Sequence record: MT446416.1
Strand: one strand, 5' to 3'
Length of the DNA: 64,000 nucleotides
Source: Escherichia virus TH47
Positions 11,857-29,202 of this stretch are shown piece by piece. Both the position numbers and the translations under genes were made by a program. The notes under the pieces were generated by a model that was not told the DNA's origin, did not search any database, and worked only from the letters and a program-made list of their open reading frames with translations. Within the stretch, counting starts at the first letter, position 1. Each line of letters opens with the position of its first letter.

Positions 11857-12354
11857 TTACGATACAGGCATGTTTATTTGAATTTCATTGTACAAATCAT
11901 CAATATATAGACATGAAAAAGATACACTATCTTTAACTATATTGTTGTGATAAAGCATTTTAAACACAATATAGAAAAATAAATCAATATCATCATGTAC
12001 TAAATTCTGCTGGAACCACCACTCTTCTGTTAAATCTTGTGCATTAAAATCATCAGGAACTTCAATGAACGACATATCACCATCTTCTTTGTACTCAAAC
12101 CACATGTCGTCATTCGGATAACGTTCATGCTTCTCTGGGTAACAATTGGTGGGATTAAATGCTAAAATATAAAACGCCGTCGAAGAATATTCTTTATTTA
12201 GAAATGAATTATTCCACACCTGATACCTTTCACCAACATCAAACTCTGGTGCTACTGATTTTATTGCACATAATGTACTGTATATTGTTTCTATCTTGTG
12301 AACAAATTTAAAGGCAGCATCTAAACTAAACTCTAAATCATACATGTACTGCAT
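11857..12354 (-). CDS. FamA paralog, function unknown
   Basis: motif EEWWFQQNLVHDDID. Confidence 0.55.
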   Translation of the reverse strand: MQYMYDLEFSLDAAFKFVHKIETIYSTLCAIKSVAPEFDVGERYQVWNNSFLNKEYSSTAFYILAFNPTNCYPEKHERYPNDDMWFEYKEDGDMSFIEVPDDFNAQDLTEEWWFQQNLVHDDIDLFFYIVFKMLYHNNIVKDSVSFSCLYIDDLYNEIQINMPVS

Positions 12355-12674
12355 AAAATTACCTCAACTAAAGCAAGGACTGTATTGAATTCCAAATTAC
12401 TTGTAATTCCTTGAAGGTACATGTACTTTGCTACTACATATTTCTGTACTAAATTATAATTTTTAAATTTCTCAAAATTGTAATTTAGAACAAAATCTGT
12501 ACTCAAAAATAACTTATGCATCTCTAATGCACTTTGATAATATTGGTACAACTCACTGATATCAATACTGGTTAAATTATATTGTTCATATCTATGATAC
12601 GGGATGGCTTCAATTTCAATACTATAAAACCATTCTCTTAACTTATTAATATCAAATGTATTATTCAGCTTCAT
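12333..12674 (-). CDS. hypothetical protein
   Basis: 113-aa ORF, no family motif seen. Confidence 0.45.
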   Translation of the reverse strand: MKLNNTFDINKLREWFYSIEIEAIPYHRYEQYNLTSIDISELYQYYQSALEMHKLFLSTDFVLNYNFEKFKNYNLVQKYVVAKYMYLQGITSNLEFNTVLALVEVILCSTCMI

Positions 12675-13245
12675 AACTCAATACCTCCATTAAGCACTCA
12701 TAAACACCATCAATCGCATAAGCACAAAAATTGAAATTAATTTTGTGATTCTTGTGTAATGGACTATTGTGTACTGTACTAATAAGGACATTATAAAACA
12801 ACAAACGCACTGGTACAAGCATTGAACCTTGGAAAAATTCTTCCTCTGATTTATATGTATTGTACTCTATTGCTTTGTTCGTTTCTTTATCATATTTTAC
12901 CATTACTAACGGGGTATTTTTATTATACCATGCGTACTCTAAATCATTATTTCCAATAACAGCACCAGGGGAGAAATCCAAAAGACCAATAACACTACTT
13001 GCATTTGGTGTATATGGTGTATTGAATCGTTTATCAAAATGACTCGTGCACGCAATATGTGAATTAAAATCAGATGGTTTAAACCCTATGCACGCGTTAA
13101 TTATTCTTGTATATGGTTTTTTATTATGTGCTGCTTTCTGGGCATTATATAAGGCTGCAACAATACAAGCTAACTTTTGCCCCATAAGGATTGCATTAGC
13201 GTAGGTGTACTGAATATCATTGCTGGTACGGTACTTCGAGGTCAT
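12661..13245 (-). CDS. FamA paralog, function unknown
   Basis: motif EEEFFQGSMLVP. Confidence 0.55.
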   Translation of the reverse strand: MTSKYRTSNDIQYTYANAILMGQKLACIVAALYNAQKAAHNKKPYTRIINACIGFKPSDFNSHIACTSHFDKRFNTPYTPNASSVIGLLDFSPGAVIGNNDLEYAWYNKNTPLVMVKYDKETNKAIEYNTYKSEEEFFQGSMLVPVRLLFYNVLISTVHNSPLHKNHKINFNFCAYAIDGVYECLMEVLSYEAE

Positions 13246-13528
13246 AATATTTCCTTTGCCATATCATGGGCTTAAAATCAATAACAGCTTTCTGTATCTT
13301 TTTTAATAATAAGACATCATAACCACCCGTGTCAATCACTAATTGCTGTTGGAACAATTCTTCATCGGATAATGTATTGAAATCTACAAAATAATCTGTA
13401 ACTATCGAATCATTTAAATGTGCCATGTACCAACCTGAACTTCTTGAATAAATCAAATTCCACCCATCGTCATCATCTTCTAATTCAACATAAATCATAT
13501 CTGGGGTATACATCATTTTATACTTCAT
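13217..13528 (-). CDS. FamA paralog, function unknown
   Basis: motif DEELFQQQLVIDTGG. Confidence 0.6.
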   Translation of the reverse strand: MKYKMMYTPDMIYVELEDDDDGWNLIYSRSSGWYMAHLNDSIVTDYFVDFNTLSDEELFQQQLVIDTGGYDVLLLKKIQKAVIDFKPMIWQRKYYDLEVPYQQ

Positions 13529-14024
13529 AACTATATCCTTGCATCAAAATATCATAAACGTTTGAAAGGTACGGAATTTTGATATAAAATTTAAAACCCT
13601 TAATTAAAGGATTCGCGTACAATGAACTGAATAACTTTAGATAATGTATTTGACGAGGACTGTATAATAACGATTTCTGAAATAATTCAGAACTACAATC
13701 TGAACTAATATCAATTAAATCAATTCGTGCTTCTACTTCATCATTTTGTTTCAAATCATAAAAGAAATAATCGTTTGTGTTGACCCACAAATACCCTTCA
13801 CTATTTTCGTATATAACAGGAGATGCTTGTTCTGGATTGCCTTGGGCAAATGCTGCAAAACAAACTTTTGCATTACTTTCATCTTTAAACAAAAACGATA
13901 ATTTATCATATCTATCTTCTATGCGTAAATCACCTATATAAATGTACTTATACATAGAATGATTATTCTTGAGCATAAGCATTACTGTACTAATCTTGTG
14001 TGCTAATAATTCTATCTCATTCAT
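13518..14024 (-). CDS. FamA paralog, function unknown
   Basis: motif SSELFQKSLLYSP; N-term MNEIELLAHKIST and C-term LMQGYSYEV identical to 14096-14650. Confidence 0.6.
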   Translation of the reverse strand: MNEIELLAHKISTVMLMLKNNHSMYKYIYIGDLRIEDRYDKLSFLFKDESNAKVCFAAFAQGNPEQASPVIYENSEGYLWVNTNDYFFYDLKQNDEVEARIDLIDISSDCSSELFQKSLLYSPRQIHYLKLFSSLYANPLIKGFKFYIKIPYLSNVYDILMQGYSYEV

Positions 14025-14039
14025 ATATTATTACCTATT

Positions 14040-14105
14040 GATGGATGCATCATCTTCTAATTCAACATAAATCATATCTTGGGGTATACATCATTTTATA
14101 CTTCA
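14040..14105 (-). pseudogene. duplicated fragment of the 5' end of gene 13217-13528
   Basis: ~65 nt near-identical to 13480-13545 with a 1-nt indel; part of a tandem duplication. Confidence 0.35.
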
Positions 14106-14650
14106 TAACTGTATCCTTGCATTAAAAGATCATAAACTACATGGACTAAATTTAATTGAATATAAAATTTTAAACCTTTAATTAATGGATTCAAATGCAT
14201 TGTACTGAATAACATTAGATACATCATCTCATGCGGTTTTGTGATTAATGATTTTTGAAATACTTCAGCTTCATCATAAGGGTCTATGAACTGAAATTTG
14301 TCTTCATCATAATTTGTATTGGAATGCTGATATATAAAATAATCATCATTGGTATTGTACCACAAATACCCTTCGAATCCTGTACTAACATCTTTGGTCA
14401 ATGGGGATGCTGATACTGGATTTGAACTGATTAATGCACCTACATCAACAATCCCCGTTGTATCATATTCGATTTCATCATCAATGTCAATATCAATGTA
14501 TTTCCTTGCGATATCTGCGTTTATGGACAAATATAAACTACCACCTGTCCTCTGACTCAGGATTCCATCTATCTGCGATATAGGATGGTTGTTATTGAGG
14601 ATAAGCATTATTGTACTAATCTTGTGTGCTAATAATTCTATCTCATTCAT
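14096..14650 (-). CDS. FamA paralog, function unknown (recent duplicate of 13518-14024)
   Basis: motif AEVFQKSLITKP; shared N- and C-termini with 13518-14024. Confidence 0.6.
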   Translation of the reverse strand: MNEIELLAHKISTIMLILNNNHPISQIDGILSQRTGGSLYLSINADIARKYIDIDIDDEIEYDTTGIVDVGALISSNPVSASPLTKDVSTGFEGYLWYNTNDDYFIYQHSNTNYDEDKFQFIDPYDEAEVFQKSLITKPHEMMYLMLFSTMHLNPLIKGLKFYIQLNLVHVVYDLLMQGYSYEV

Positions 14651-14658
14651 AATTTACC

Positions 14659-14835
14659 TTATGGATTCGGGTGCAATAAATGATCTTGATAATTTAAATG
14701 TTCTATTGTAACTAATGAAAGATAATAATTGTAATTATCTATACCACCCTTTAAATGTATATTGTAAAACATCTTGATACTTACTAATAAAGAATCATTT
14801 AAATCATTTATTGCTTTTGTATTAACGTCTTTCAT
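14659..14835 (-). CDS. hypothetical small protein (58 aa)
   Basis: manual translation MKDVNTKAINDLNDSLLVSIKMFYNIHLKGG...; below ORF-track length cutoff. Confidence 0.3.
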   Translation of the reverse strand: MKDVNTKAINDLNDSLLVSIKMFYNIHLKGGIDNYNYYLSLVTIEHLNYQDHLLHPNP

Positions 14836-15032
14836 TAATGTTCTTCTCTTAAAAAACGCTTAATGGCACAATCTAAATAAAAATCATAATACATCATATC
14901 TCGATTCTTAACCCATACACAATAATCTGCATTAATATTTCTTAATAATATATTCATATTATAATCTTCACTCCCTAATCGTGCCATTTGATAGGATACT
15001 CCTTCCCTTGCACTACATAAGATATAATCCAT
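14835..15032 (-). CDS. hypothetical small protein
   Basis: 65-aa ORF. Confidence 0.4.
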   Translation of the reverse strand: MDYILCSAREGVSYQMARLGSEDYNMNILLRNINADYCVWVKNRDMMYYDFYLDCAIKRFLREEH

Positions 15033-15364
15033 CCGTAATGAATAGGACTATTCTTGTCTCCTTTTGGAATAAAATATAAAGATGTACTGGAATTATAACT
15101 GAATAAATCATTATTGTCAAATGTAAAATGAGATAACGTTATCTTCCTTGAACTTGGACTAATAACATTCTTAACACCGAACACTGTATCTTGATATTTC
15201 TCTGAAAATTCAAACAATGCATCTGTAATTAAATCATTGAATTCTATATATAATGGTTTAAAAGAACCATCCTTATCTTGGAACTCCTTATATAAAGAAC
15301 TTCTGGTATTCAAAAGAAATATTACTTTTTTAAGATCCTGAACTATTTCTGGATTCATATTCAT
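14975..15364 (-). CDS. hypothetical protein
   Basis: 129-aa ORF; start uncertain. Confidence 0.45.
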   Translation of the reverse strand: MNMNPEIVQDLKKVIFLLNTRSSLYKEFQDKDGSFKPLYIEFNDLITDALFEFSEKYQDTVFGVKNVISPSSRKITLSHFTFDNNDLFSYNSSTSLYFIPKGDKNSPIHYGWIISYVVQGKEYPIKWHD

Positions 15365-15623
15365 TTATCTCATTCATCTCATTCTGTAACTTATGCATCA
15401 AAATTTGTATATTAATTTTTTTTCCAAGGTGATTGAGAAATTTCTGTACCATTTCTTCTTGTACTGATGTACCAAGATAAAATAACATATTAAATTCCGA
15501 TAATCTCAGAGCAAAATCTTCCTCTCCCCCTCGTAAACAAAAATCCCTGTACTTTGATGCATACAAATAACGGTTTATTTTTTTGTACATTTGGGTCTGC
15601 ATTGTATCTCCTTTTTCAAACAC
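15330..15623 (-). CDS. FamB-like small protein
   Basis: motif FYLGTSVQEE. Confidence 0.5.
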   Translation of the reverse strand: MFEKGDTMQTQMYKKINRYLYASKYRDFCLRGGEEDFALRLSEFNMLFYLGTSVQEEMVQKFLNHLGKKINIQILMHKLQNEMNEINEYESRNSSGS

Positions 15624-15787
15624 CTTATTAGATTATCAACGTATTGGTCCTGTACTATTGTCCCTAGATAAAATGATACTTCGAACTCTGCAAATTTGAT
15701 ATTAAAAGGATCTACATATACATCTTTAATAAACTCTTTGTACTTCAACAAATATTCATTAGGTAAATTCTTATATATCGATTTCAA
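15575..15787 (-). CDS. FamB-like small protein
   Basis: motif FYLGTIVQDQ. Confidence 0.5.
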   Translation of the reverse strand: MKSIYKNLPNEYLLKYKEFIKDVYVDPFNIKFAEFEVSFYLGTIVQDQYVDNLIRCLKKEIQCRPKCTKK

Positions 15788-16082
15788 TGATCCTCCCTGA
15801 CATACCTTGTATTAGCTTATCATACATATCGAGCATAACTTTTTGTATATTAATTAATACTGGCATCGTGCAAATATCAATGTCGTATATTAAGCTGTAC
15901 TGGAATAATTCCTCTTCCTGCATTTGTACTAAATTAGGTAAAAGATAATTGTCTGCCTCTTCATCCTGGTACTTGAAATGCATAACACCATTCGTTTTGT
16001 ACAATAGAATGTCAATATCACCCAATTCATAGGAATAACCAAAAATACATATACTCGATGTTTTTGCTATATTAAATTTCAT
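15771..16082 (-). CDS. FamA paralog, function unknown
   Basis: motif EEELFQYSLIYDID. Confidence 0.6.
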   Translation of the reverse strand: MKFNIAKTSSICIFGYSYELGDIDILLYKTNGVMHFKYQDEEADNYLLPNLVQMQEEELFQYSLIYDIDICTMPVLINIQKVMLDMYDKLIQGMSGRIIEIDI

Positions 16083-16091
16083 ATTATTCTC

Positions 16092-16415
16092 TTATATGTG
16101 GAATTCACATACGTGTTGAACAAAATTCTTTGGAAGATGACAATGTGATATCATCTGCTTTTGTACTTCCTTCATATCTTCGAATGTAAATCCTAAAGAA
16201 TCATCATGTACTAACAAGTACTGAAACTCTTCTTCTTCAGAGATAGAACATAAATTCGGTACTGAAATTGTTTTTGTTTTTCTTGCACCCAATTTCCAAT
16301 GAAAAGAATTATCACATTTTCTGTACTCAAATATCTTCAACCCAGAACCCGTATTAAAATCAGCTACTACAATGTAACAAGAATTCTTACGTACAATACA
16401 ATTGAACTTACGCAT
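16092..16415 (-). CDS. FamA paralog, function unknown
   Basis: motif EEEEFQYLLVHDD; start at ATG 16413-16415 preceded by GGAGA. Confidence 0.55.
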   Translation of the reverse strand: MRKFNCIVRKNSCYIVVADFNTGSGLKIFEYRKCDNSFHWKLGARKTKTISVPNLCSISEEEEFQYLLVHDDSLGFTFEDMKEVQKQMISHCHLPKNFVQHVCEFHI

Positions 16416-16719
16416 TATCTCCACCTCTCCCCGTCTGTACAAGAGTACTGGTACGTTGTCGTTATGGTAGGGACCATGTTTGTAATGGGCATATTATTAA
16501 CAATAACGGTAACAGGCATAAGAATCGTCTCTACTCTACTCTGTCCTGTCTTTGTGCAATTCATCTTCTGCATTTCATCTGAATCCATGAAATACAATAC
16601 AAATGGTGCAATCCCAAGAACAATACACAAGACGATAAGGAAATTTAAAAAATTTAACATAATTTTTACCCTATGATTAACGTTAGTGTACTATATCAGT
16701 AATGAAAAGTACTGTCAAG

Positions 16720-17115
16720 CTAGTATTGCACTGTTCTAATGAAAGTACCTTTACTCATGGATTTAAGCTTATGAACCTCTTCCTGTATACCCTTGAGCAA
16801 CCCTAAAGGTATAGGTACATCATGTACTAAGCTGTACTGAAAGTATTCTTCTTCAGATAAAGTACTAACATCTGGAACGCCAATTTTAGTTATATAATCT
16901 TGATGTGTTGACCAATAAATTATATCTTCAGTAGAATTGTACTCCCCATATACTGAACAATATTGATGAATATCTTTCCTGTACCCTTGAGCAATAAAGA
17001 ACTTATCTACTGCATTACCAGCATTAATAGAATTCACTTCGATTGTCACAGTACTTGAGCTTGTATAACTCTTAATATTATCAGTACTCAACTGTGTGTT
17101 CTTCATAATCACCAT
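16720..17115 (-). CDS. FamA paralog, function unknown
   Basis: motif EEEYFQYSLVHDV. Confidence 0.6.
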   Translation of the reverse strand: MVIMKNTQLSTDNIKSYTSSSTVTIEVNSINAGNAVDKFFIAQGYRKDIHQYCSVYGEYNSTEDIIYWSTHQDYITKIGVPDVSTLSEEEYFQYSLVHDVPIPLGLLKGIQEEVHKLKSMSKGTFIRTVQY

Positions 17116-17425
17116 TAGGCTCCTGTTTAGATTCTTTCATTAGTACTATCATCTTATGTACTAATGGCATAGGAAACTCTAAATCCCATACTAATGATTC
17201 CTGGAAGTATTCCTCTGGTGATAAAGTACTTAAATCTTTAATATCAACGTGCTTGTATATTTTATTTTCGTAATTAACAAATGATATATATAAATCACTA
17301 ACATAAGAATCATAGGTAATTGTGAATGGCTTACCCTTGTAATCCATTACATCTCTACATAGACTACTTTTGATATATGTATGTTCAAATGATTTATATA
17401 CCTTGAGTTTTATATTAGTTTTCAT
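17081..17425 (-). CDS. FamA paralog, function unknown
   Basis: motif PEEYFQESLVWDLE. Confidence 0.6.
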   Translation of the reverse strand: MKTNIKLKVYKSFEHTYIKSSLCRDVMDYKGKPFTITYDSYVSDLYISFVNYENKIYKHVDIKDLSTLSPEEYFQESLVWDLEFPMPLVHKMIVLMKESKQEPNGDYEEHTVEY

Positions 17426-17690
17426 ATTTCTCTTTATTAGCTTGTTTGGTTTTATAGTGAATGAAATCTATTAATGTAATCAAGTACAACGTCAAATAGT
17501 ACTCTTGTTGATCTGTACCTAATGATACAAAGAACTTGTGCTCATAGATTAAAACCTGTTTCTCTTCAAATGGACATTTAATCCTCTGTATAGGCTTAAG
17601 TAAATGATAGTACTTATTAAATCTATGATACATTTCTAGTTCTGTCAGTACTTTCATATTAAACACATACTCCATTAGCAGTAGCATCAC
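17415..17690 (-). CDS. FamB small protein
   Basis: motif VSLGTDQQEY. Confidence 0.55.
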   Translation of the reverse strand: MMLLLMEYVFNMKVLTELEMYHRFNKYYHLLKPIQRIKCPFEEKQVLIYEHKFFVSLGTDQQEYYLTLYLITLIDFIHYKTKQANKEKYEN

Positions 17691-17880
17691 GTAAAGCTGT
17701 CAAATACTTCTGTACGGCTTGCTCTTGCTTATTTGTACCTAAAAGTATATACATCCATAATTCACTGTAATGTACATCTTGTGTATAAGGGTTGTTGTAA
17801 CTTTTTGATACTATAACATCAAATTCAGATGCATGAACCCTTGTGAACTTAAGAATATCTTTTTGTGTTATGATTCTCAT
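17659..17880 (-). CDS. FamB small protein
   Basis: motif ILLGTNKQEQ. Confidence 0.55.
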   Translation of the reverse strand: MRIITQKDILKFTRVHASEFDVIVSKSYNNPYTQDVHYSELWMYILLGTNKQEQAVQKYLTALRDATANGVCV

Positions 17881-18092
17881 ATCTTTTCCTGTATAAGCTT
17901 CTTAAGAATCTCAATATGTGAATTAACAGTTCTTTATTGATGTTGTGTTCCTAAGAGTGTCAGTACTATCATCTCTGAACGCAAAAGATTTTTTTCAAGT
18001 TCACTGATATCAGTTCTTGTATCAAGTACTAAAAATTCTTGACTATTTTTTCTGAATAATGCCAAGTACTCTTGGTTTGATATTACCTTCAT
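17877..18092 (-). pseudogene. FamB member interrupted by in-frame ochre codon
   Basis: frame MKVISNQEYLALF...LLGTQHQ-TAA-RTVNSHIEILKKLIQEKI; TAA at 17934-17936; ATGA overlaps at both ends preserved. Confidence 0.45.
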
Positions 18093-18319
18093 AGTTTATC
18101 CCTGATGCCATTTAAAAGTGCTCTAATATGCTCATTGACAAAACGCTCTTGGGAATCTGTGTCTAGGGTGAGAAGCATTCTTAAATCTGAACTTTTGATA
18201 TGATATTCTAAATCATTATTTGATTCTTGCATCAGTTTCTGAAAGGATGAGAAGTTTGCTGCCATTAGTTCAATGTATTCTGCTGTTCCTAGGGGTTTGT
18301 GTATGTGCTGTCTGTGCAT
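18089..18319 (-). CDS. FamB small protein
   Basis: motif LTLDTDSQER. Confidence 0.5.
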   Translation of the reverse strand: MHRQHIHKPLGTAEYIELMAANFSSFQKLMQESNNDLEYHIKSSDLRMLLTLDTDSQERFVNEHIRALLNGIRDKL

Positions 18320-18531
18320 TTTAATTGTATTACCCTTTTGAGTGTATTAATGTAATTATACACATTGGCTTCTTGATAGTTAGTTCCTAGAGTAGCTTGA
18401 ACGTAGATTTCATTTAACTTAATAATTTTATCCGTATCTGGTAGTTTTGATGTGTTAATGGCAAATAACTTCAAAAACAGTCCATTTATGATTGTTCTGT
18501 ATTCTTCTCCGGTAATGATTCGCATTTGCAT
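18289..18531 (-). CDS. FamB small protein
   Basis: motif ATLGTNYQEA. Confidence 0.55.
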   Translation of the reverse strand: MQMRIITGEEYRTIINGLFLKLFAINTSKLPDTDKIIKLNEIYVQATLGTNYQEANVYNYINTLKRVIQLKCTDSTYTNP

Positions 18532-18737
18532 GTTCTCAGTACTGATTCTTTAAGTTCATTGATGTAGCACTCTACATATTCTTCTTGTAGGTTTGTTCCG
18601 ATATGTAACAGTACTCTTAAATCTGCTCTCAGTACTTCTTTGTCATCTTCATCTATATCAGACAGTGTTATGTTTAAGAATTTACTTGAACTCTCTATAA
18701 GTAATATTACTGAATCACCTTTGCTTAAAATTTTCAT
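18486..18737 (-). CDS. FamB small protein
   Basis: motif LHIGTNLQEE. Confidence 0.55.
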   Translation of the reverse strand: MKILSKGDSVILLIESSSKFLNITLSDIDEDDKEVLRADLRVLLHIGTNLQEEYVECYINELKESVLRTCKCESLPEKNTEQS

Positions 18738-18945
18738 AATCTCTTTTTGCTTTCCTCGCCAAAAGGTACATATACGATTCTTCGTATTGTGCTTGGTAGT
18801 TTGTGTTTAAGAGTCGAAACAACTTCTGTTCTGCTAGAACGAGTTGCTTATCTTCATAACAACGATAGCGTATCAACTTTTTGTATTCGATGTTGATTAC
18901 ATCCATTACTATAAGCCTATGTTCATCATCAGTCAAGTGTTTCAT
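18715..18945 (-). CDS. FamB small protein
   Basis: motif LLNTNYQAQ. Confidence 0.5.
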   Translation of the reverse strand: MKHLTDDEHRLIVMDVINIEYKKLIRYRCYEDKQLVLAEQKLFRLLNTNYQAQYEESYMYLLARKAKRDYENFKQR

Positions 18946-19183
18946 GCTTTTTTCTTTTCCTGATGTTCTTAGTTAAAAGGTATATTAGTTTTCTATTGTA
19001 TTCTTCCTGATAGTTTGTTCCTAATAGTGCAAGAAGTTTTGCTTCAACTAGAGCTAATTGACGTTCTTCAAATGTGTGTTCCAGTATATACTTTGGGTTT
19101 GATTTTTTAGCGTAAGCACTATTAGTTTTCATTACAATCTTATGATATTCATTAACTGTTAGGATTTTTAAATTCTTGAGCAT
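18929..19183 (-). CDS. FamB small protein
   Basis: motif LLGTNYQEE. Confidence 0.55.
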   Translation of the reverse strand: MLKNLKILTVNEYHKIVMKTNSAYAKKSNPKYILEHTFEERQLALVEAKLLALLGTNYQEEYNRKLIYLLTKNIRKRKKHETLD

Positions 19184-19409
19184 GTATCTTTTCCTTTATA
19201 GAGAATTTAAGATATCGAAGCATACTTTCAATGTAATACTCTTGTCTGTCAGTTCCAAGAAAGTACATGAGTTGAATGTATAAAACTTCTGCACTCCTTT
19301 CGGCATGTGACTTGTTTGTGTCGTTTGGAAGTTGATTTGTAAGTTTTCTGGATTTAATTAATCGTTCTTTTAACTCATCGTCTGTTAAGTATATCATTTC
19401 ACTTTTCAT
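19152..19409 (-). CDS. FamB small protein
   Basis: motif FLGTDRQEY; N-term MKSEMIYLTDDE shared with next two genes. Confidence 0.55.
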   Translation of the reverse strand: MKSEMIYLTDDELKERLIKSRKLTNQLPNDTNKSHAERSAEVLYIQLMYFLGTDRQEYYIESMLRYLKFSIKEKIHAQEFKNPNS

Positions 19410-19629
19410 TTACTTTTTCCTTAATACTCATTACAAGATGTTCAATCATATTTTGAACCATAAATTCTTGTTTATCAGTTCCAAGAACGTATGGTAGCTT
19501 CTGAAACAATACATTCGCAGACATTTCATATATTGATTGATTTGGAACGAACTTAAGAGTAATGTTATTGGCTTTTAACATCTTCTCTTGAAATTCTTCA
19601 TTCGTTAAGTATATCATTTCATTTTGCAT
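19399..19629 (-). CDS. FamB small protein
   Basis: motif VLGTDKQEF; N-term MQNEMIYLTNEE. Confidence 0.55.
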   Translation of the reverse strand: MQNEMIYLTNEEFQEKMLKANNITLKFVPNQSIYEMSANVLFQKLPYVLGTDKQEFMVQNMIEHLVMSIKEKVNEK

Positions 19630-19855
19630 TTACTTTTTCCTTAATAGTAATTTTGAGATATTTAATTATACGTTCAATGTGATACTCTTGTCTATCAGTT
19701 CCCAGAAGATATGGTAGTGATTGGAATAAAACTTCTGCACTCCTTTCTGCTGGGGTTTGGTTTGTGTTGTGAGGAAGTTTATTTGTAAGTCTTTTGGATT
19801 TAGATAGTCTTTCTGATAACTCATCATGTGTTAAGTATATCATTTCCTTTTGCAT
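19619..19855 (-). CDS. FamB small protein
   Basis: motif LLGTDRQEY; N-term MQKEMIYLTHDE. Confidence 0.55.
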   Translation of the reverse strand: MQKEMIYLTHDELSERLSKSKRLTNKLPHNTNQTPAERSAEVLFQSLPYLLGTDRQEYHIERIIKYLKITIKEKVNAK

Positions 19856-20083
19856 TTACATTCTCTCATGTGCATTTTGGGTTAAAAGATCAATCCAGAT
19901 TTCCACATATCGTTGTTGGTGTTGCGTCCCTAACAGTACACCTAACTTGGCTTCGGACTCTAATATCATTCTGGTTTTGAACGGTAGACTTTGAAATCCT
20001 ATTGTAGCATCTAATTTGGTAATTGCATATTTGATTCGGATGAATCTTTCTTGTAATGTGATGTTGATCATTTCACAGTACAC
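19856..20083 (-). CDS. FamB small protein
   Basis: motif LLGTQHQQR. Confidence 0.55.
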   Translation of the reverse strand: MYCEMINITLQERFIRIKYAITKLDATIGFQSLPFKTRMILESEAKLGVLLGTQHQQRYVEIWIDLLTQNAHERM

Positions 20084-20346
20084 CTTAGTGGTTGGGTCAT
20101 TTGATAAAAGTACAGCTTACCTTTGATTTCCATTAGTAATTCATTTAATACGCGTTGGACCTCTGGTTCTTGATAGTTTGTCCCTAACAATGCACCCATC
20201 TTTAGCTCACGATACATAATCATCTTCTTACGGTGTTGAATTTCTGGGTTGTGATAGATTTCATTTCGTTTAGTTGAGATTTTAGCCATGCGTTCATGAT
20301 ATTCATCTGAATTTAAATTAATCATTTTTATTCTCCAAAGCATCAC
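20068..20346 (-). CDS. FamB small protein
   Basis: motif LLGTNYQEP. Confidence 0.55.
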   Translation of the reverse strand: MMLWRIKMINLNSDEYHERMAKISTKRNEIYHNPEIQHRKKMIMYRELKMGALLGTNYQEPEVQRVLNELLMEIKGKLYFYQMTQPLRCTVK

Positions 20347-20563
20347 ATTTATTTTCGATACAATTCATGAGTTCTCTAAGATAGTTTTTTACCTTACCTG
20401 ACTGATAGTTCGTCCCTAGGAAGTTGCACAACACGGCTTCTATGATTTTGATTTTCCTGATATCAGGCTTCAATTTTTTGTTATTGAAGATTTGAATCCT
20501 TATATCTCTGGATGCATTTAAACGTTTTTGATATTCATGGTAAGTTAAATTAATCATTTTCAT
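20318..20563 (-). CDS. FamB small protein
   Basis: motif FLGTNYQSG. Confidence 0.55.
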   Translation of the reverse strand: MKMINLTYHEYQKRLNASRDIRIQIFNNKKLKPDIRKIKIIEAVLCNFLGTNYQSGKVKNYLRELMNCIENKCDALENKND

Positions 20564-20778
20564 TTACGTTTAACCTCTCGCTGGAGGGCATCAATTAACA
20601 TCAGTACAGCATTCTCTTGATAGTTTGTTCCTAAGAATGAAAGCATCTTTATATCAGACACTAAAATCAACTTCTTTGAGCGTTCAATAATGTTACTATT
20701 ATAAACGGCGTTACGTGCTGGATAAGTTTTTGCAAGACGAACATAATATTCATCTTTACTTAAATTAATCATTTGCAT
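20560..20778 (-). CDS. FamB small protein
   Basis: motif FLGTNYQEN; ATGA overlap. Confidence 0.55.
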   Translation of the reverse strand: MQMINLSKDEYYVRLAKTYPARNAVYNSNIIERSKKLILVSDIKMLSFLGTNYQENAVLMLIDALQREVKRK

Positions 20779-20987
20779 TTACTTTTAACCTCTTTAATTA
20801 GTGCATCAACCCATAGGTCTACATACATTTGTTGATAGTTTGTCCCCAATAGTGCACCTACATAGAGTTCAGCTTTCATTGCGTGCTTTAGGTCAATAGG
20901 GATGCTCTTATCGTTTGATATCATTCTCCTTCTGCTGCCACATGTTTTCAGAAGCTTAACATATTCGTAACCTATTAATTTTCTCAT
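20769..20987 (-). CDS. FamB small protein
   Basis: motif LLGTNYQQM. Confidence 0.55.
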   Translation of the reverse strand: MRKLIGYEYVKLLKTCGSRRRMISNDKSIPIDLKHAMKAELYVGALLGTNYQQMYVDLWVDALIKEVKSKCK

Positions 20988-21199
20988 TCTTTTGATATCA
21001 CCTTGTTGCGTAAGGCACTTAACAATACGTCAGTGTAGATGTTTTGATAGTTTGTTCCTACGAATACACCCAACTTCATTTCAGCTATTATAACACATTT
21101 GTCCTCTTGTGCAATAGACTTGTCTAAAGAAATACTAACAACTTTCCTTCTTATAGCTTGTAACCTCCAATGATACTGATACTCATTTAGGGTTATCAT
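20984..21199 (-). CDS. FamB small protein
   Basis: motif FVGTNYQNI; ATGA overlap. Confidence 0.55.
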   Translation of the reverse strand: MITLNEYQYHWRLQAIRRKVVSISLDKSIAQEDKCVIIAEMKLGVFVGTNYQNIYTDVLLSALRNKVISKE

Positions 21200-21434
21200 T
21201 CTCTCGTCTCCATATCTCGGTTCTAATGTGTTGGCATTGTGCTTCGATGAACATATCTATTGATTTGGCAATTGCTTTTTTATCAGTGCCTGTCATCAGT
21301 ACAAGCATCTCGGCCTCACAGTGAAGTAAACGCATGATATCATAGGGTAATATTTCAGATACCGTGTCATAGTGTTTCTGTGCCAGTGTCTGCAATAGTT
21401 TACAATACATTTTGTGGTTCATTCTTTGTCGCAT
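21183..21434 (-). CDS. FamB-like small protein
   Basis: divergent motif MTGTDKKAI. Confidence 0.45.
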   Translation of the reverse strand: MRQRMNHKMYCKLLQTLAQKHYDTVSEILPYDIMRLLHCEAEMLVLMTGTDKKAIAKSIDMFIEAQCQHIRTEIWRRENDNPK

Positions 21435-21691
21435 TGTTTATTCCATTCTTTTTTGGCCTTGGTGGTTTTATATTGGATTTGGTTTCTTAATGCTGATAAG
21501 TATCGTTGAATGAACAGATCTTGATAGTTTGTCCCAATGAATTTCATAAGATAAACATCACCGTTGATAACATCCACTTCAGGTACACCATGTAATGCAT
21601 TGTTATTTCTAAGGGTTCTAATAAGAGAGAACAGGGCAGTTTGATACTCAACTCCTGATAAAATCTTCATATTTTGCGTGGATGTATTCAT
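21419..21691 (-). CDS. FamB small protein
   Basis: motif FIGTNYQDL. Confidence 0.55.
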   Translation of the reverse strand: MNTSTQNMKILSGVEYQTALFSLIRTLRNNNALHGVPEVDVINGDVYLMKFIGTNYQDLFIQRYLSALRNQIQYKTTKAKKEWNKQCDKE

Positions 21692-21905
21692 CTAGTTTAT
21701 CCTGTATAACATTCGTTAATTGATCGATATATTCTGTGCAAAACTTATCTTGATATTGAGTCCCCATAAAGTACAGCAACCATAGCTCATCAACTTTAGC
21801 TCGCATTTGGTTCCATGTAAGGGTGGGGTCATCGTAGACTATCCTTGCGACTGGGGTTAGTTTACGAACTATAGTTTCATATTCATCTTGTGTTAAGCGT
21901 CTCAT
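21648..21905 (-). CDS. FamB small protein
   Basis: motif FMGTQYQDK. Confidence 0.55.
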   Translation of the reverse strand: MRRLTQDEYETIVRKLTPVARIVYDDPTLTWNQMRAKVDELWLLYFMGTQYQDKFCTEYIDQLTNVIQDKLDEYIHAKYEDFIRS

Positions 21906-22126
21906 TTACCTAAATCCCTGACATGACATTTTAAGGCCGTGATGTGGTTGTCTACCATAACCTCCTGATAGTTTGTCCCTACAAATGGTATTAATGTTGA
22001 GTCTGTTAGTATAACATACTTTTCATTGGATGTTAGTGATTCATCATCGTAAACTTGAAGTCTAAAGTTCTTCCCTTGTTCTAATCGTTTAAGATATTCT
22101 TGAGTGTTTATGTCTTTCATTTGCAT
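21902..22126 (-). CDS. FamB small protein
   Basis: motif FVGTNYQEV; ATGA overlap. Confidence 0.55.
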   Translation of the reverse strand: MQMKDINTQEYLKRLEQGKNFRLQVYDDESLTSNEKYVILTDSTLIPFVGTNYQEVMVDNHITALKCHVRDLGK

Positions 22127-22335
22127 TTGTCCATAATGTATTTCTTGAGTGCAACTATGTGCTCATGGACATAACTTTCCTGATAGTTTGTCCCCAGTAC
22201 AGCCATCATGCGTACATCGGTGGTGTTTATCTTGTGTTCAAATCGTGTTAAGCCTTTTTTTTGTAAAAGGGTATCGTATTTGTTTAATGCATCAATGATA
22301 ATTCTCATCTTCTCTATATTACTTAAATGTTTCAT
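22117..22335 (-). CDS. FamB small protein
   Basis: motif VLGTNYQES. Confidence 0.55.
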   Translation of the reverse strand: MKHLSNIEKMRIIIDALNKYDTLLQKKGLTRFEHKINTTDVRMMAVLGTNYQESYVHEHIVALKKYIMDKCK

Positions 22336-22547
22336 ATTTTGTTTCTATGGTGCTCCATGAGTGTTTCTGTGTAGTTCTTCATGAATTTATCTTGAAACTG
22401 TGTCCCGATGAATTGTAAGACCCATAGTGCATATATTCGTTCTTCCTTGTCCACCAAAGATAAATGTATATTATTATAAATCCTTTGTTCTTTATCTAGG
22501 GTAGACAGTACACGAGCCTCGTATTCACCTTGTGTTATTTTAATCAT
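22332..22547 (-). CDS. FamB small protein
   Basis: motif FIGTQFQDK; ATGA overlap. Confidence 0.55.
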   Translation of the reverse strand: MIKITQGEYEARVLSTLDKEQRIYNNIHLSLVDKEERIYALWVLQFIGTQFQDKFMKNYTETLMEHHRNKI

Positions 22548-22759
22548 AGTTTGCTCTTAATGTATTTCTTGAGTGCATTTATATACACATTCAAGAAATG
22601 CTCCTGATAGTCTGTTCCCAAGAATGCACCCAATAGTATATCATTTTCCAATACCTCGGCTAAGTTTAAATCAGAAGTCTCTTCATATACTATGAGGATT
22701 TCAAGTTGTCTGGCAGCAACGCGTTCGGTATATTGATGTGAGTTTGTAATGATATTCAT
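22544..22759 (-). CDS. FamB small protein
   Basis: motif FLGTDYQEH; ATGA overlap. Confidence 0.55.
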   Translation of the reverse strand: MNIITNSHQYTERVAARQLEILIVYEETSDLNLAEVLENDILLGAFLGTDYQEHFLNVYINALKKYIKSKL

Positions 22760-22967
22760 AGTTTACTCTTAATGTGGTTCTTGAGTGCAAATAAGTATTC
22801 CCCTACATAATACTCCTGAAAGTCTGTATCCAAAAATGCACCCATGAGTAAATCCTTCTCCATTGCCCTTGATAAGTTAAGGTCTACGCTTGAAAGGTAT
22901 ATCAGTAAGATTTCAGCCTGTGCCGAATTGAAACGTATCTTATATTCTTCTGGTGTTAAAAAATCAT
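22756..22967 (-). pseudogene. FamB member with frameshift after start codon (T6 homopolymer)
   Basis: ATG-ATT-TTT-TAA at 22956-22967 (minus); remaining frame ...ITPEEYKIRFNSAQAEILLIYLSSVDLNLSRAMEKDLLMGAFLDTDFQEYYVGEYLFALKNHIKSKL is a clear FamB protein without an in-frame start. Confidence 0.45.
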
Positions 22968-23170
22968 AGTTTACTCTTTATATCTTTTATTAAATGTAAA
23001 ATCCAATCATTAACAAAACTTTCTTGGAAGTTGGTTCCCAGTCCAGCCATCATCCACCACTCCGATAGAATAAACTTTTTTTCATCCCTAGATAACTCAT
23101 CTGGTATATATATATTCTTTCTATATTCGATCATAAGATTATATAGTTGAAATTGTGTGATAATTTTCAT
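22964..23170 (-). CDS. FamB small protein
   Basis: motif GLGTNFQES. Confidence 0.55.
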   Translation of the reverse strand: MKIITQFQLYNLMIEYRKNIYIPDELSRDEKKFILSEWWMMAGLGTNFQESFVNDWILHLIKDIKSKL

Positions 23171-23364
23171 AGTTTACCCGTTATATCTTCAATTAAATAT
23201 GAAATCCAATCCTTGACATACCTTTCCTGAAAGTTAGTTCCAATGAATAGTGCCATAACCAATTCACGCTTATAGGCCATACCACGTTCATGTGACTTAT
23301 ACATTATCATAGCCATGTTATTGATAAGTCTTTCGTGATGTTCTGCTTGAGTTAAAATACGCAT
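23167..23364 (-). CDS. FamB small protein (first gene of the array)
   Basis: motif FIGTNFQER; preceded by 250-bp intergenic region. Confidence 0.55.
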   Translation of the reverse strand: MRILTQAEHHERLINNMAMIMYKSHERGMAYKRELVMALFIGTNFQERYVKDWISYLIEDITGKL

Positions 23365-23891: not shown

Positions 23892-24293
23892 TTACAACCC
23901 TAAGATAGTACGTGCTTCGTTACGTTCCTTAGTTTGCTGCATGATGTAAGCTAACTGGTCCTTGCTAATGTATCCCTTGTCCATAGCTTCACGGATAGAT
24001 ACATCATAAGCACCGAACCCCGTGCGAACGATACGCACATCATTCAGGTTAGTGTTATATATACCGCCGAGATCAACGGATTCGAATACTGCATCAACTG
24101 TATATTCGTTGTTACCGTCATTGAAGTTTTCAATCTCAATATTACGGGACACGGCCCAACGTTTACAGCTACCGATAATGCGGCAATATTCCGGTTGCAT
24201 ATGACCATTACTTACAGCGTGCTCAAGGCCAGCTTTACCAAAAGTCCGGGCCAGTACTAAAACGTCAGCGTAAGAAGTGATAGTGAAAGTCAT
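23892..24293 (-). CDS. hypothetical protein
   Basis: start MTFTITSYADV at 24291-24293 after AGGAG; track N-extension MYNVLHREG is translation of the promoter/stem-loop cassette. Confidence 0.55.
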   Translation of the reverse strand: MTFTITSYADVLVLARTFGKAGLEHAVSNGHMQPEYCRIIGSCKRWAVSRNIEIENFNDGNNEYTVDAVFESVDLGGIYNTNLNDVRIVRTGFGAYDVSIREAMDKGYISKDQLAYIMQQTKERNEARTILGL

Positions 24294-24382
24294 GATGATA
24301 CTCCTTAAGTTAGGAGGGAGAACCATTTCCCCCTCTCTATGTAAAACATTATACATGAATCTAAGTACTATGCAAGTACTTT

Positions 24383-24715
24383 TTACATTTTAATACCTGG
24401 ATTCAGGTAGCGGTGAGATCCATACTCTGGGTAGGTTTCAGTCCAGTACTGTAAATCTATAGTACCTTTAGCGTTAATCTTGTCTACCAGCTTATTCATC
24501 TTAGCGTATACTACATTAGCATCGATGCGTTTAAAGCCAGTGGCTTTAGTGAAGTAGTAGTGATTTGCTTCACTATCATTAAGGATATACCGAGCACCGT
24601 TTGCCGTTTGTGCAATAATGATTGAGTATTCTACTTCCCGATCCAGTCCGTCAATGAATACAGATGAAACATTAGTACGGATGAAAGCGTTTACGATAGC
24701 GATTGAAGTACTCAT
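24383..24715 (-). CDS. hypothetical protein
   Basis: 110 aa; AGGAG RBS. Confidence 0.55.
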   Translation of the reverse strand: MSTSIAIVNAFIRTNVSSVFIDGLDREVEYSIIIAQTANGARYILNDSEANHYYFTKATGFKRIDANVVYAKMNKLVDKINAKGTIDLQYWTETYPEYGSHRYLNPGIKM

Positions 24716-24860
24716 TTTGAATCTCCTAACTTTGTGGGCCGTCGCACCATTGCCGCCCTACGAGATACATTATTGCAGTACTGCTATACTTTGTCAATAG
24801 TTTTTTATTAATAGTTTTAGTACTGGCAGTACATCCACCAGCAGATAGTTACTCACCGTT

Positions 24861-24965
24861 ATTAACTATATATTTTAGATACACCTATGCACCCGGTGGG
24901 CTAGTTTTTGTCTATGCGTATATAATAGCAAAGGGACTTACCGGAGTCAATCCCTTTTTTATTCT
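24861..24965. repeat. ~100-nt conserved intergenic element, copy 1 (TATAAT...ATGCACCCGGTGGGCTAG...hairpin+T-run)
   Basis: near-identical copies at 25966-26066, 28698-28800, 32948-33055. Confidence 0.55.
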
Positions 24966-24967
24966 TT

Positions 24968-25225
24968 TTATGAAATATCTTCGATGTAGTCGGCCCATTT
25001 CATTTTTTCAGTACTGTCAATGGCTACCGGATTATTTGGATCAAACCATTCACCATTACCGCAATACATACCCACGGCTACGGTTTTATAGCCATCCTGT
25101 GCCGTATTCCATGACATTGCACGATAGATATGGCCTTTAATTGGTGTTAGTACTGGTAACGTTTTATGGTCTTCTACGTAGGCCATAGCTTGAGGATTTA
25201 CCCGATATTGTGTGAACTGTTCCAT
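24968..25225 (-). CDS. hypothetical protein
   Basis: 85 aa. Confidence 0.5.
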   Translation of the reverse strand: MEQFTQYRVNPQAMAYVEDHKTLPVLTPIKGHIYRAMSWNTAQDGYKTVAVGMYCGNGEWFDPNNPVAIDSTEKMKWADYIEDIS

Positions 25226-25301
25226 TATGTTTCCCCTTGTAGTTAGTAAAGTTATTACATCAGTACTATCAAGCTATGTCAATAGTACTGAAATAAAACT
25301 T

Positions 25302-25526
25302 TTAGATTAGATTATTGATACCTTCGATGGTAGACTCGCTTTCTTCTTTCTCCCATTGTCGGTAGTACTTCCATGTTTCATGATATGTGGCGATTAGTTC
25401 ATCTTTTTGATCCTGGTTACATGCCAGTACTGAATCACGGTGAGCGGTGTTATAGATAGAATCGAATGATTTCTTCTCTTCTGCCAGGTTAGCTACTTCC
25501 CGCATCAGTTCATCAAAGTTAGCCAT
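25302..25526 (-). CDS. hypothetical protein
   Basis: 74 aa; AAGGAG RBS. Confidence 0.5.
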   Translation of the reverse strand: MANFDELMREVANLAEEKKSFDSIYNTAHRDSVLACNQDQKDELIATYHETWKYYRQWEKEESESTIEGINNLI

Positions 25527-25593
25527 TTTAATACTCCTTTTAGTGGGGGAGGATATCTCCCCCTATGCAAAACATTATACGCTTTATTCAGTA

Positions 25594-25857
25594 CTATGCA
25601 AGTACTTTTTTCATATAAACATTAAATTCTACACCGCCGTAACCTTCCACGATGATATGTTTTGCGTTATCACGCTTGCACATAGTGAAACCGTTGTTGA
25701 TATGTTCTGCATTTTCCAGGGCTACATCACCGATAGCGGCACATACAGCACTAATAACAGTATTCCGCAAAGTACTGGTATCATTAGCGGTCATAGTAGT
25801 TTGCAGTACTACGTTGTCATATACGTGTGCATTGATAGTGATTTCAATAGCGTTCAT
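25594..25857 (-). CDS. hypothetical protein
   Basis: start MNAIEITINAH at 25855-25857 after CCAGGAGA; track extension is cassette read-through. Confidence 0.5.
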   Translation of the reverse strand: MNAIEITINAHVYDNVVLQTTMTANDTSTLRNTVISAVCAAIGDVALENAEHINNGFTMCKRDNAKHIIVEGYGGVEFNVYMKKVLA

Positions 25858-25865
25858 GGTGTATC

Positions 25866-25928
25866 TCCTGGACTTGAGGGGAAACCATTTCCCCCTCTCG
25901 ATGTAAAACATTATACGCGAATTGCGAT
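25866..25928 (-). promoter_or_regulatory. sigma70-like promoter (TTGCAT-16-TATAAT) followed by palindromic stem-loop GGGGAAAnnnTTTCCCC and RBS
   Basis: -35 at 25922-25927, -10 at 25900-25905, stem-loop ~25868-25885 (minus-strand sense). Confidence 0.55.
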
Positions 25929-26073
25929 AGTATGCAAGTACTTTTTTAAAATAGTTTTCAGTACTGAATACTTATATAATAGATACATTTATGCACCCGG
26001 TGGGTTAGATTGTTTTCATGCATATATAATAGCAAAGGGACTGACCTGAGTCAATCCATTTTTTTAATCTTTT

Positions 26074-26658
26074 TTATCGTGTTATAGTTACGGCTTTTAC
26101 ATCACGCTTTTTATAGTACTGATTCCAGATATTGCGGGTTAAACCGTAATCAAGTACTTTAATCAAGCCGTTACGATCCTGGCCGATATTCTGTTTTCTG
26201 ATATCTCTTATAGTTAGTGTTGATAAGGTATCATCAACGTGTTGTAGTGCATCAGCAAAGCGGTGCTGGCGTTCAATGGTATTACGTTTAATATTGCACT
26301 TTAATTCGTTGCACGCGTTAACGTGCTTTACGCTGCCTTTGCTTGCAGTACTCAAACGATCCATAACAATAAACATATTATCAGGATCGCTTAAATGCAT
26401 ATGCACCTTAGCAAAGTACTGTTTCATTTGAGGGCGGTCATAATCTAAAAAATTCCATACCTTACATTCAGTTTCATTTTGTTCTACACCCGCATCACAA
26501 TTCGCGACCTTGATCACTAACCGATCATTTAAAGCGAATACTATACGGGAAGAACCCGCACCGATGATCTCAAGACCAGCTAACCGACAAGCTGAAAGGA
26601 TCTCTTTGTTGGTTTCCATTTCTGACAGTGTACGGATAAATTTAGTATAATTACGCAT
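26074..26658 (-). CDS. protein-kinase-like protein (Ser/Thr kinase fold)
   Basis: Gly-rich loop IIGAGSSRIV, VIKV lysine, catalytic-loop-like IRDIRKQN, DFG-like LDYG; start MRNYTKF at 26656-26658 after AAGGAG. Confidence 0.5.
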   Translation of the reverse strand: MRNYTKFIRTLSEMETNKEILSACRLAGLEIIGAGSSRIVFALNDRLVIKVANCDAGVEQNETECKVWNFLDYDRPQMKQYFAKVHMHLSDPDNMFIVMDRLSTASKGSVKHVNACNELKCNIKRNTIERQHRFADALQHVDDTLSTLTIRDIRKQNIGQDRNGLIKVLDYGLTRNIWNQYYKKRDVKAVTITR

Positions 26659-26705
26659 TGCATTTACTCCTTGAATTGATGAAACTATATTACAGTACTT
26701 TACTA

Positions 26706-26933
26706 TCAATGGCAACTACTTTTTTTAACATTAACGGCGTGGATCACTTCCTTAGTGTTTTTAGTACTGAATACTTTTGCCGCTCCTTGTTCGACCGTGA
26801 TGCGATAGCGACCATTAACATCAACCATATTAATAAAGTCCGGCGTGCTGAATGGTGTTGTTTTACATTTCAGTACGGTTAACAGTTCCACCAGCGATGT
26901 AGTTTATTTGATACGTTTTTCTAAAGTAATCAT
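26706..26933 (-). pseudogene. small ORF with in-frame TAA at codon 10
   Basis: ATG 26931-26933 with RBS-like context; TAA at 26904-26906 in frame; downstream frame continues ...TTSLVELLTVLKCKTTPF (track ORF 26706-26891). Confidence 0.3.
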
Positions 26934-26987
26934 TTTGTTTTCCCCCGTGTTGGTATATATACATAGTACTAAAACATTTGAGTACTG

Positions 26988-27242
26988 TCAACGTGAAATT
27001 CTTTTAATAGCAGTATTATACTGCTGGTGCTCATACAAACTAATTTTACCAGTACTCTCGATAACGATTCTATTGTTAGTGTCTACATCGATAACACGCA
27101 GTTTACCGTTGCTTAACTTCCTAGGTAATATGTTACCATTAATAAACTCATTAGCAAGCTGTACGGCCTTTGTGATGATTCTCTGAGGGGCTTTATAGTG
27201 TACCCGCAAGATATTATCTTTAGATAGTTGTACCTTAATCAT
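26988..27242 (-). CDS. hypothetical protein
   Basis: 84 aa; AGGAT RBS. Confidence 0.5.
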   Translation of the reverse strand: MIKVQLSKDNILRVHYKAPQRIITKAVQLANEFINGNILPRKLSNGKLRVIDVDTNNRIVIESTGKISLYEHQQYNTAIKRISR

Positions 27243-27304
27243 TTTAGTTTATCCTATAAAAAAAGCGGGAACTGATCCCGCCGTGTTGTTAGTACTGCTA
27301 GGTA

Positions 27305-27700
27305 TTAGATAACCTGTCGGCGTTTACTGAATACAGTAACACTGTTTCCCTTGCGGTCGTGGCGGATCTCTCGTTGGTTGCGAATCAGTACACTTGGACG
27401 CTTCAAGTTAGCCAGATGATCCGCGTGAGTCCATGCATTCGAATTTACGGAAACTTTAATATCAGAACCCGCGACGAATTCATCTTGAGCGTTAAGAATT
27501 GCCGCCAGTTCTTCAGCTTGTTTTTGTTCTGCTGCTGTCAGTACTGGCTCAGGTGAATTCACAATATCAGAGATTTCTTTGAACTGTACGGCCCAGCGTT
27601 GGCCTTTCGGTGCATCTTTGCCCATGTCTTTAAATAGCTCACCTTCCTCGCGTGCAACAATACGGGCAGCTTCACGGGTAGCGTAGAATTTAGTAATCAT
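27305..27700 (-). CDS. hypothetical protein (paralog of 39218-39481)
   Basis: shared segments ATREAARIVA...FKDMG...RWAV...HDRKGN-VTV. Confidence 0.5.
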   Translation of the reverse strand: MITKFYATREAARIVAREEGELFKDMGKDAPKGQRWAVQFKEISDIVNSPEPVLTAAEQKQAEELAAILNAQDEFVAGSDIKVSVNSNAWTHADHLANLKRPSVLIRNQREIRHDRKGNSVTVFSKRRQVI

Positions 27701-27795
27701 GGTATACATCCTATTAGTTAAGTTAGTACTACAAGCGAGAGTCTATTATAAAGTACTATCTGTGTAATGTCAAATAGTACTTTAAATGGATTCTA

Positions 27796-28119
27796 TTACA
27801 TGTCTTTCTTACGTTTTACATCGTAGTAGCGAACTGTTATTTCTTTGTTAATCTCTTTTTCGATGCGGTGAATAACTTTTTCTTTCGGGTTGAAACCTAT
27901 AACGGTTTCTTTAATGATCTCCAAACCAGTGTATTCGCCTTGCGTACCGTAACCGTATGTAAAGGTTTCGTGTCCCAGGTCTTCCCAGCGGTCGCCAATT
28001 AACGCAGACACGTAGCAAGAGTGGTAAGTATTGCCGTTCCGATCAGTCCAGCGATTAACTTTAATGTCAAAGGAGGTTACAATTTTCAGTTCTACTTTCT
28101 GGGTAAGGATCATAGCCAT
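27796..28119 (-). CDS. hypothetical protein (paralog of 34364-34708)
   Basis: shared YGYG motif and C-terminal DVKRKKD[ML]. Confidence 0.5.
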   Translation of the reverse strand: MAMILTQKVELKIVTSFDIKVNRWTDRNGNTYHSCYVSALIGDRWEDLGHETFTYGYGTQGEYTGLEIIKETVIGFNPKEKVIHRIEKEINKEITVRYYDVKRKKDM

Positions 28120-28206
28120 TTTTATTTCTCTCTTTTAGTTAGGAGGGGAACCATTCCCCTCACTTGATGTAATCTATTATACAGTACTAAGATACTTTGT
28201 CAATAC

Positions 28207-28482
28207 TTAAGTATTGTAAATGTCGTGAATAGTGATAAAGTTTTTACGACCGTAAACCTGTAAATCGGTATCAATGTAGTGTTTATCTAGTACATCCTCG
28301 ACGCTTAACGCGGTGTCGTGGATATCTTCGTAGAATTGAGGATCTACAATCTTGCTTAAGTCATCCGGTGTTAACTTATCGTTAAGCCATTGCACCGCCT
28401 GGATATCTGCTTCACGTTTCCAGTCTTGCAGGTTAGTAGTCAGTACTTGCTCGATTTCGTTAGCTGTCAGTAGAATCCGCAT
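28207..28482 (-). CDS. hypothetical protein
   Basis: 91 aa; preceded by TTGACA-16-TATAAT. Confidence 0.5.
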   Translation of the reverse strand: MRILLTANEIEQVLTTNLQDWKREADIQAVQWLNDKLTPDDLSKIVDPQFYEDIHDTALSVEDVLDKHYIDTDLQVYGRKNFITIHDIYNT

Positions 28483-28536
28483 TTTAATGTTTCCTTATCA
28501 GTGGTTGATGTAAGTATTATACTCGTTTACTTTCTA

Positions 28537-28620
28537 TTGTCAATCTTTTTATCAGGGGAGTTTTTCGTATGTCTTACTCCTGGACTACTTAACGGGGTTA
28601 CTTGTTTCGTTCCCCCGTCC
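28537..28620. repeat. ~80-nt conserved element (ATCAGGGGAGTTTTTCGTATG...CCCCGTCCTGATG), copy 1 of 2
   Basis: second copy at 38537-38622; internal inverted repeats. Confidence 0.5.
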
Positions 28621-29116: not shown

Positions 29117-29134
29117 TATACTTTCCTCTTTGTT

Positions 29135-29195: not shown

Positions 29196-29202
29196 GTACT
29201 TT

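Follow-up and report, generated by a model that had tools for sequence, protein, structure and literature searches.

Two members of a tandem gene array in Escherichia virus TH47 do not read as full-length proteins, and the question they raise is whether they are dead genes, genes expressed through recoding, or intact genes misread in the sequence record. The array lies in a 64,000-nucleotide stretch of record MT446416.1 (the window, by which we mean this whole stretch) and consists of genes for proteins of ~70 amino acids that belong to one family, FamB, which corresponds to PHROG 4148 ("unknown function"). A first-pass annotation had proposed that the two copies were either pseudogenes of a decaying array or genes dependent on ochre suppression or -1 frameshifting. 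The first of these proposals was supported, in that the lesions were lineage-specific, 13 relatives were intact and independent dead copies were present elsewhere; the second was not, since the sites were not conserved, TAA is the main terminator, no suppressor tRNA was found in the window or in the tRNA cluster of a relative, and no stimulatory structure was found past either site. Both lesions are probably genuine mutations that recently abolished gene function, in an array that is redundant and turns over. The features concerned, all on the minus strand, are:

17877-18092, minus strand: FamB (PHROG 4148) member with a premature ochre codon (gene 1), from its translation and its full-length PHROG 4148 match once repaired.

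17934-17936, minus strand: in-frame TAA in place of the Glu codon of the LGT(N/Q)xQE motif, from the orthologue alignment.

22756-22967, minus strand: FamB member frameshifted at codon 4 (gene 2), with MIF-stop in frame 0 and the whole family sequence, lacking its own start codon, in the -1 frame, from the translations.

22958-22963, minus strand: T6 run (A6 on the plus strand), from the orthologue alignment.

17415-23364, minus strand: 27 FamB/PHROG 4148 copies in tandem, of which 25 are intact and two carry the lesions, from a family hidden Markov model (HMM) scan of six-frame segments, the list of open reading frames (ORFs) and the gene junctions.

Gene 1 had been described as an intact-looking FamB gene apart from its TAA, and this was borne out. 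Its translation, MKVISNQEYLALFRKNSQEFLVLDTRTDISELEKNLLRSEMIVLTLLGTQHQ*RTVNSHIEILKKLIQEKI*, is a 71-codon protein with one internal stop, at codon 53 of the 72 in the gene. As written, the segment matched only positions 1-52 of the window-family HMM, whereas replacing the stop by Glu gave a PHROG 4148 match with E = 2.5e-20 (residues 1-71 on profile positions 1-71 of 74). The TAA occupies the E of the LGTxxQE motif, which is the first residue of helix 4 in an AlphaFold2 model of one family member; the product as written is 52 amino acids long and the last helix is missing. Gene 2 begins ATG ATT TTT TAA and as written encodes a 3-amino-acid peptide. Three-frame translation confirmed the earlier observation that a -1 slip restores the full FamB frame: after the shift the frame is DFLTPEEYKIRFNSAQAEILLIYLSSVDLNLSRAMEKDLLMGAFLDTDFQEYYVGEYLFALKNHIKSKL*, open to the end (it begins DFLTPEEYKIRF and ends KSKL), and the +1 frame is closed. 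With one T added (T7), the gene reads MIFLTPEEY... and matches PHROG 4148 with E = 1.4e-21 (1-70 on 1-71 of 74). No alternative in-frame start was found upstream in the -1 frame; the only candidate, Met36, would give a 35-amino-acid fragment and was rejected. Once repaired, both proteins can be aligned with the window's 25 intact copies. Because they match PHROG 4148 end to end, the lesioned genes are recognisable family members and not chance ORF fragments.

Relatives of the window were sought by megablast with the 17-24 kb region and both window ends. The only matches were jumbo phages of E. coli and Salmonella of the genus Asteriusvirus (121Q, PBECO4, WPEC5, fEgEco12, vB_Ec-M-J, SP27, JP4 and others of the 121Q/PBECO4 group), at 87-96% identity and with no identical record among them; the array sits in the left-end accessory region of this type of jumbo coliphage. 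Megablast against complete E. coli genomes and against plasmids gave no match, nor did exact look-ups of the truncated 52-amino-acid ORF and its neighbour. Syntenic genes were then compared across 13 GenBank records and one 76-kb metagenome contig. One record, CMSTMSU (MH494197), is labelled "UNVERIFIED" and contains 29 disrupted genes within the 12-kb array region, mostly through homopolymer indels; these include plain homopolymer deletions, also in its copy of gene 1. This record should not serve as evidence for lesions in common and was set aside, leaving 13 usable relatives (12 GenBank isolates and the metagenome contig). It also carries 19 annotated coding sequences at the locus, compared with ~45 in the relatives.

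The orthologues of gene 1 (216 nucleotides) and of gene 2 (213-216 nucleotides) were intact in 13 of 13 usable relatives, and syntenic intact coding sequences are annotated, for example, in WPEC5 (WPEC5_CDS0651 and CDS0673) and in 121Q (gp339 and gp322). At the site of the TAA every relative encodes Glu, as GAG in most and as GAA in 121Q. A metagenome scan gave three contigs, all three with GAG at this site; a pattern scan of IMG/VR for gene 1 returned 121Q itself and nothing else. At the place of the T6 run, the sequence is T7 (MIFL...) in seven relatives and ATTATATT (MIIL...) in six, in frame throughout. T6 was found otherwise only in CMSTMSU, which we do not count as true sharing because of the 29 disrupted genes in 12 kb of that record. 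The IMG/VR pattern scan for gene 2 and a scan of genome contigs gave no matches. On this comparison both lesions are confined to the window genome, the error-ridden CMSTMSU apart. The family members of the other phages (121Q gp319-gp341 and their homologues in PBECO4, WPEC5 and fEgEco12) resemble those of the window in size (~70 amino acids), in the LGTNYQE motif and in tandem order with ATGA overlaps, and the two genes share 86-92% DNA identity with their orthologues; the difference is that both copies are interrupted here and the orthologues are uninterrupted.

The lesions are young. Ratios of non-synonymous to synonymous substitution (dN/dS) between the repaired genes and their orthologues were 0.18-0.46, and the 18 codons past the TAA differed from A4 and 121Q at 4 synonymous and 0-1 non-synonymous positions, so that the frames must have been selected until very recently. 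Purifying selection thus acted on both frames across almost the whole of the ~10% divergence, which makes each lesion recent. The loci accordingly show what is expected of pseudogenes, namely disabling lesions that are absent from orthologues under purifying selection. This pattern would fit a sequence error or read-through just as well and does not by itself separate these explanations.

In gene 1, a G to T change would have turned a conserved Glu codon (GAA/GAG) into TAA; in gene 2, one T would have been lost from a T7 run at codons 2-4. We infer that both are true mutations and not errors, and that the shortened products are inactive; both products as written are most likely non-functional. 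The high redundancy of the family and the turnover of its copies would let the phage tolerate such losses, and polarity would be expected to be limited because downstream genes keep their own Shine-Dalgarno-like sequences. Adjacent copies mostly overlap, by ATGA or by 10-44 nucleotides, and within its last codons one copy provides a Shine-Dalgarno-like sequence, AAGAG or AGGA, to the gene that follows. Copy number ranged from 21 to 30 across the genomes (27 in the window).

Dead or reduced copies were also present in other genomes. Phage 121Q (KM507819) has an ochre codon of its own in the gene at 6273-6482 on the minus strand, where AAA has become TAA at codon 15 of a different FamB member, gp321, whose orthologues are intact in SP27, vB_Ec-M-J and WPEC5. 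As in gene 1, a single-base change has produced TAA in a family copy that is otherwise well conserved; the difference lies in the array member and the position affected, and in an internal ATG two codons past the TAA that permits gp321 to be annotated as a 49-amino-acid remnant. A 5'-truncated copy covering profile positions 30-72, annotated as a coding sequence of 52 amino acids, is common to PBECO4, JP4, G17 and a metagenome contig, and in several genomes, PBECO4, JP4 and G17 included, a 26-amino-acid C-terminal remnant lies between two intact copies. These older family remnants are located as follows:

~10312-10515 and ~8474-8551 in L007, L008 and L017; 2303-2506 in L011; 8267-8344 in L005: the 5'-truncated copy and the 26-amino-acid remnant.

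Altered junctions can merge array copies too, as shown by P0001, a metagenome protein of 154 amino acids from ENA that is an in-frame fusion of orthologues of the window genes at 18929-19183 and 18715-18945.

Three further window-specific lesions were found in small genes, all of which are intact in WPEC5 and fEgEco12:

8406-8632, minus strand: small gene (74 amino acids in WPEC5, 71 in fEgEco12) frameshifted by an extra AT (ATATATA to ATATATATA) at about codon 50.

26690-26933, minus strand: 80-amino-acid gene with GAA to TAA at codon 10 (26904-26906) and an A6 to A7 frameshift near the 3' end.

40670-40849, minus strand: 59-amino-acid ORF in the terminal-repeat-homologous region, with TTA to TGA at codon 42 (40724-40726), Leu in WPEC5 and fEgEco12.

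The gene at 26690-26933 encodes an identical protein in WPEC5 and fEgEco12; whether the ORF at 40670-40849 is a real gene is uncertain. To place these changes against the background of mutation, we counted ~1,598 substitutions assigned to the window lineage in a 33.6-kb three-way alignment, with an ordinary spectrum. About 6% of such substitutions create a stop, so that ~80 nonsense changes would be expected under neutrality, compared with 3 seen. Against such an expectation, the survival of a few nonsense changes in dispensable genes needs no special explanation.

The most serious competitor of true mutation is that the genome has Glu (GAA) and T7, that both genes are intact, and that the lesions are sporadic errors of sequencing or assembly. 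We regard this as unlikely overall, while giving it real weight. A change from T7 to T6 is a one-base difference in homopolymer length, the commonest type of consensus error, and the only other T6 is in a record rich in homopolymer indels; in addition, run-length differences break other small genes in the window (the A6 to A7 change and the extra AT). The TAA, in contrast, reflects a substitution, a form that consensus errors take less typically, and the window lineage showed no systematic excess of G to T. We also considered whether basecalling had gone systematically wrong at the two GAA to TAA changes, both in A-rich context, and rejected the idea, as the 81 G to T sites in the window lineage share no common context. 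The 12-kb array region has two robust disruptions in the window; well-sequenced relatives have 0-1 there, and CMSTMSU has 29. In 13 larger genes at 51-59 kb (~8.5 kb) there is no stop or frameshift, although these are too few genes to conclude that large ones escape lesions. The well-studied reference genome of 121Q carries a nonsense codon of similar kind in the family. The window record is thus not generally error-ridden, and isolated errors are possible, particularly at the homopolymer, where the caution of the first-pass annotation still applies. Several points do weigh against our preference for true mutation. The bases come from a consensus sequence, in which an error is possible, especially at a homopolymer; neither gene has decayed beyond its single lesion, and an error or functional read-through would look alike in this respect; and mid-gene lesions affect ~5 of ~93 genes in the window compared with 0-1 of ~120 when WPEC5 is set against fEgEco12, an unfair comparison, as that pair is much closer. 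This excess could reflect a less polished assembly.

Recoding would explain the same two sites by ochre suppression or read-through at the TAA and by -1 slippage on U UUU UAA, with full-length protein made from both genes. We consider this highly improbable, and functional expression of any leaky or programmed form to be improbable as well. The slip is mechanistically possible: a P-site tRNA-Phe could move from UUU to the overlapping UUU with a slowly decoded stop in the A site, which yields exactly the ancestral MIFLTPEEY..., and the sequence past both lesions is still a perfect family match. Neither site is conserved, however, as in each of the 13 usable relatives both reading frames run through uninterrupted, and there is no sign of selection for the slip. 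Because TAA ends 87 of the 144 ORFs in the window (TGA 50, TAG 7), efficient suppression of ochre codons would lengthen most proteins. ARAGORN found no tRNA in the 64-kb window, and the tRNA cluster of fEgEco12 (Ser(GCU), Met, Asn and two Thr) includes no suppressor; neither do the tRNAs reported for fEgEco12 (two Ser, Met, Asn and two Thr; PMC13070987) or for Sharanji (Thr, Asn, Met, Arg, Gly and two Ser; PMC11895373). Recoding of TAG or TGA in large phages, by stop reassignment or suppressor tRNAs, likewise places an in-frame stop within a conserved phage gene; the codon in gene 1 differs in being TAA, the main terminator of this genome, in being single and not conserved, and in having no suppressor tRNA found for it in the window or among the tRNAs of fEgEco12 and Sharanji. 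Gene 2 shares with programmed -1 frameshifting (E. coli dnaX, A AAA AAG; the G/GT sites of phage tail chaperones) a run of identical bases for -1 re-pairing. It differs in that frame 0, AUG AUU UUU UAA, has no canonical X XXY YYZ heptamer and a stop as its A-site codon, which leaves only a single-tRNA P-site slip; in having no stimulatory structure, positive upstream Shine-Dalgarno stimulator or conservation; and in that even the normal protein would require a shift, at codon 3. RNA downstream of the T6 site folds with a minimum free energy of -12.9 kcal/mol (z = -0.78; 48 of 200 shuffles fold as well), and across the two lesion sites the downstream z scores of -0.78 and -1.70 were not significant against shuffles. 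Nor would a single recoding rule cover all the window lesions, since the others comprise a TGA and different indels. A further variant makes the T run a slippage-prone on/off switch (a contingency locus), with T6 and T7 mixed in the population and the record showing the off state. Homopolymers are hot spots of replication slippage, T7 at codons 2-4 is kept in seven relatives, and T6 occurs in one other record. In six relatives, however, the run is interrupted while the protein start (MIIL...) is kept, so the run itself is not conserved; a T7 run is short for efficient phase variation, and the T6 of CMSTMSU is most simply an error. We find the switch very unlikely. Much the same scant credence attaches to low-level expression of the lesioned copies, in gene 2 by a stop-stimulated -1 slip of tRNA-Phe or by T6/T7 switching and in gene 1 by near-cognate read-through. 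If this were true, the array would be tuned copy by copy and not simply decaying.

Taken as recent loss of function, the two lesions are an ordinary phenomenon, birth-and-death turnover in a redundant accessory gene array of a jumbo phage, and carry little weight by themselves. For annotation, both loci are best flagged as pseudogenes or possible errors, and should not be listed as candidates for recoding. More interest attaches to the array, for its many copies, its position adjoining a terminal repeat and its confidently predicted fold. The AlphaFold2 model of one copy, computed with the 25 intact paralogues of the window as input, has four helices and a predicted local distance difference test score (pLDDT) of 97. 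FamB matched no Pfam family, and a profile search of 5.8 billion proteins returned 74 homologues, all "hypothetical" and without a Pfam domain; the source names given were those of E. coli or Salmonella jumbo-phage records or E. coli assemblies. Outside Asteriusvirus the array has no structural or sequence relatives, and the family already has its PHROG entry, with function unknown. Two divergent relatives lie beyond it:

15330-15787, minus strand: two divergent FamB relatives that match only the C-terminal half of the profile (HMM positions 31-68 and 36-68), from the family HMM.

This divergent pair has counterparts in all relatives.

In fEgEco12 and vB_Ec-M-J, the array begins immediately inside a ~21-kb direct terminal repeat and is transcribed away from the genome end (PMC13070987). 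This repeat, at whose inner edge the array starts, is known by annotation or measurement from vB_Ec-M-J, fEgEco12 and Sharanji. The repeat-related sequence corresponds to ~24000-44000 in the window, to 1-21000 in fEgEco12 (L019) and to the part of L004 from 11392. The repeat-homologous part of the window contains many very small genes with spacers of ~60-100 nucleotides, in contrast to the overlapping genes of the array, which suggests that they are individually promoted early genes. A promoter and terminator scan performed no better than shuffles.

Two other tandem paralogue families were noted next to FamB. One, at 15771-17425 on the minus strand, consists of proteins of ~105-130 amino acids with the motif ...EEE(Y/F)FQ(Y/E)SL(V/I)(H/W)D... 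and a weak match to PHROG 13866. The other lies at 12000-15400 on the minus strand and encodes proteins of 168-184 amino acids that begin MNEIELLAHKIST.

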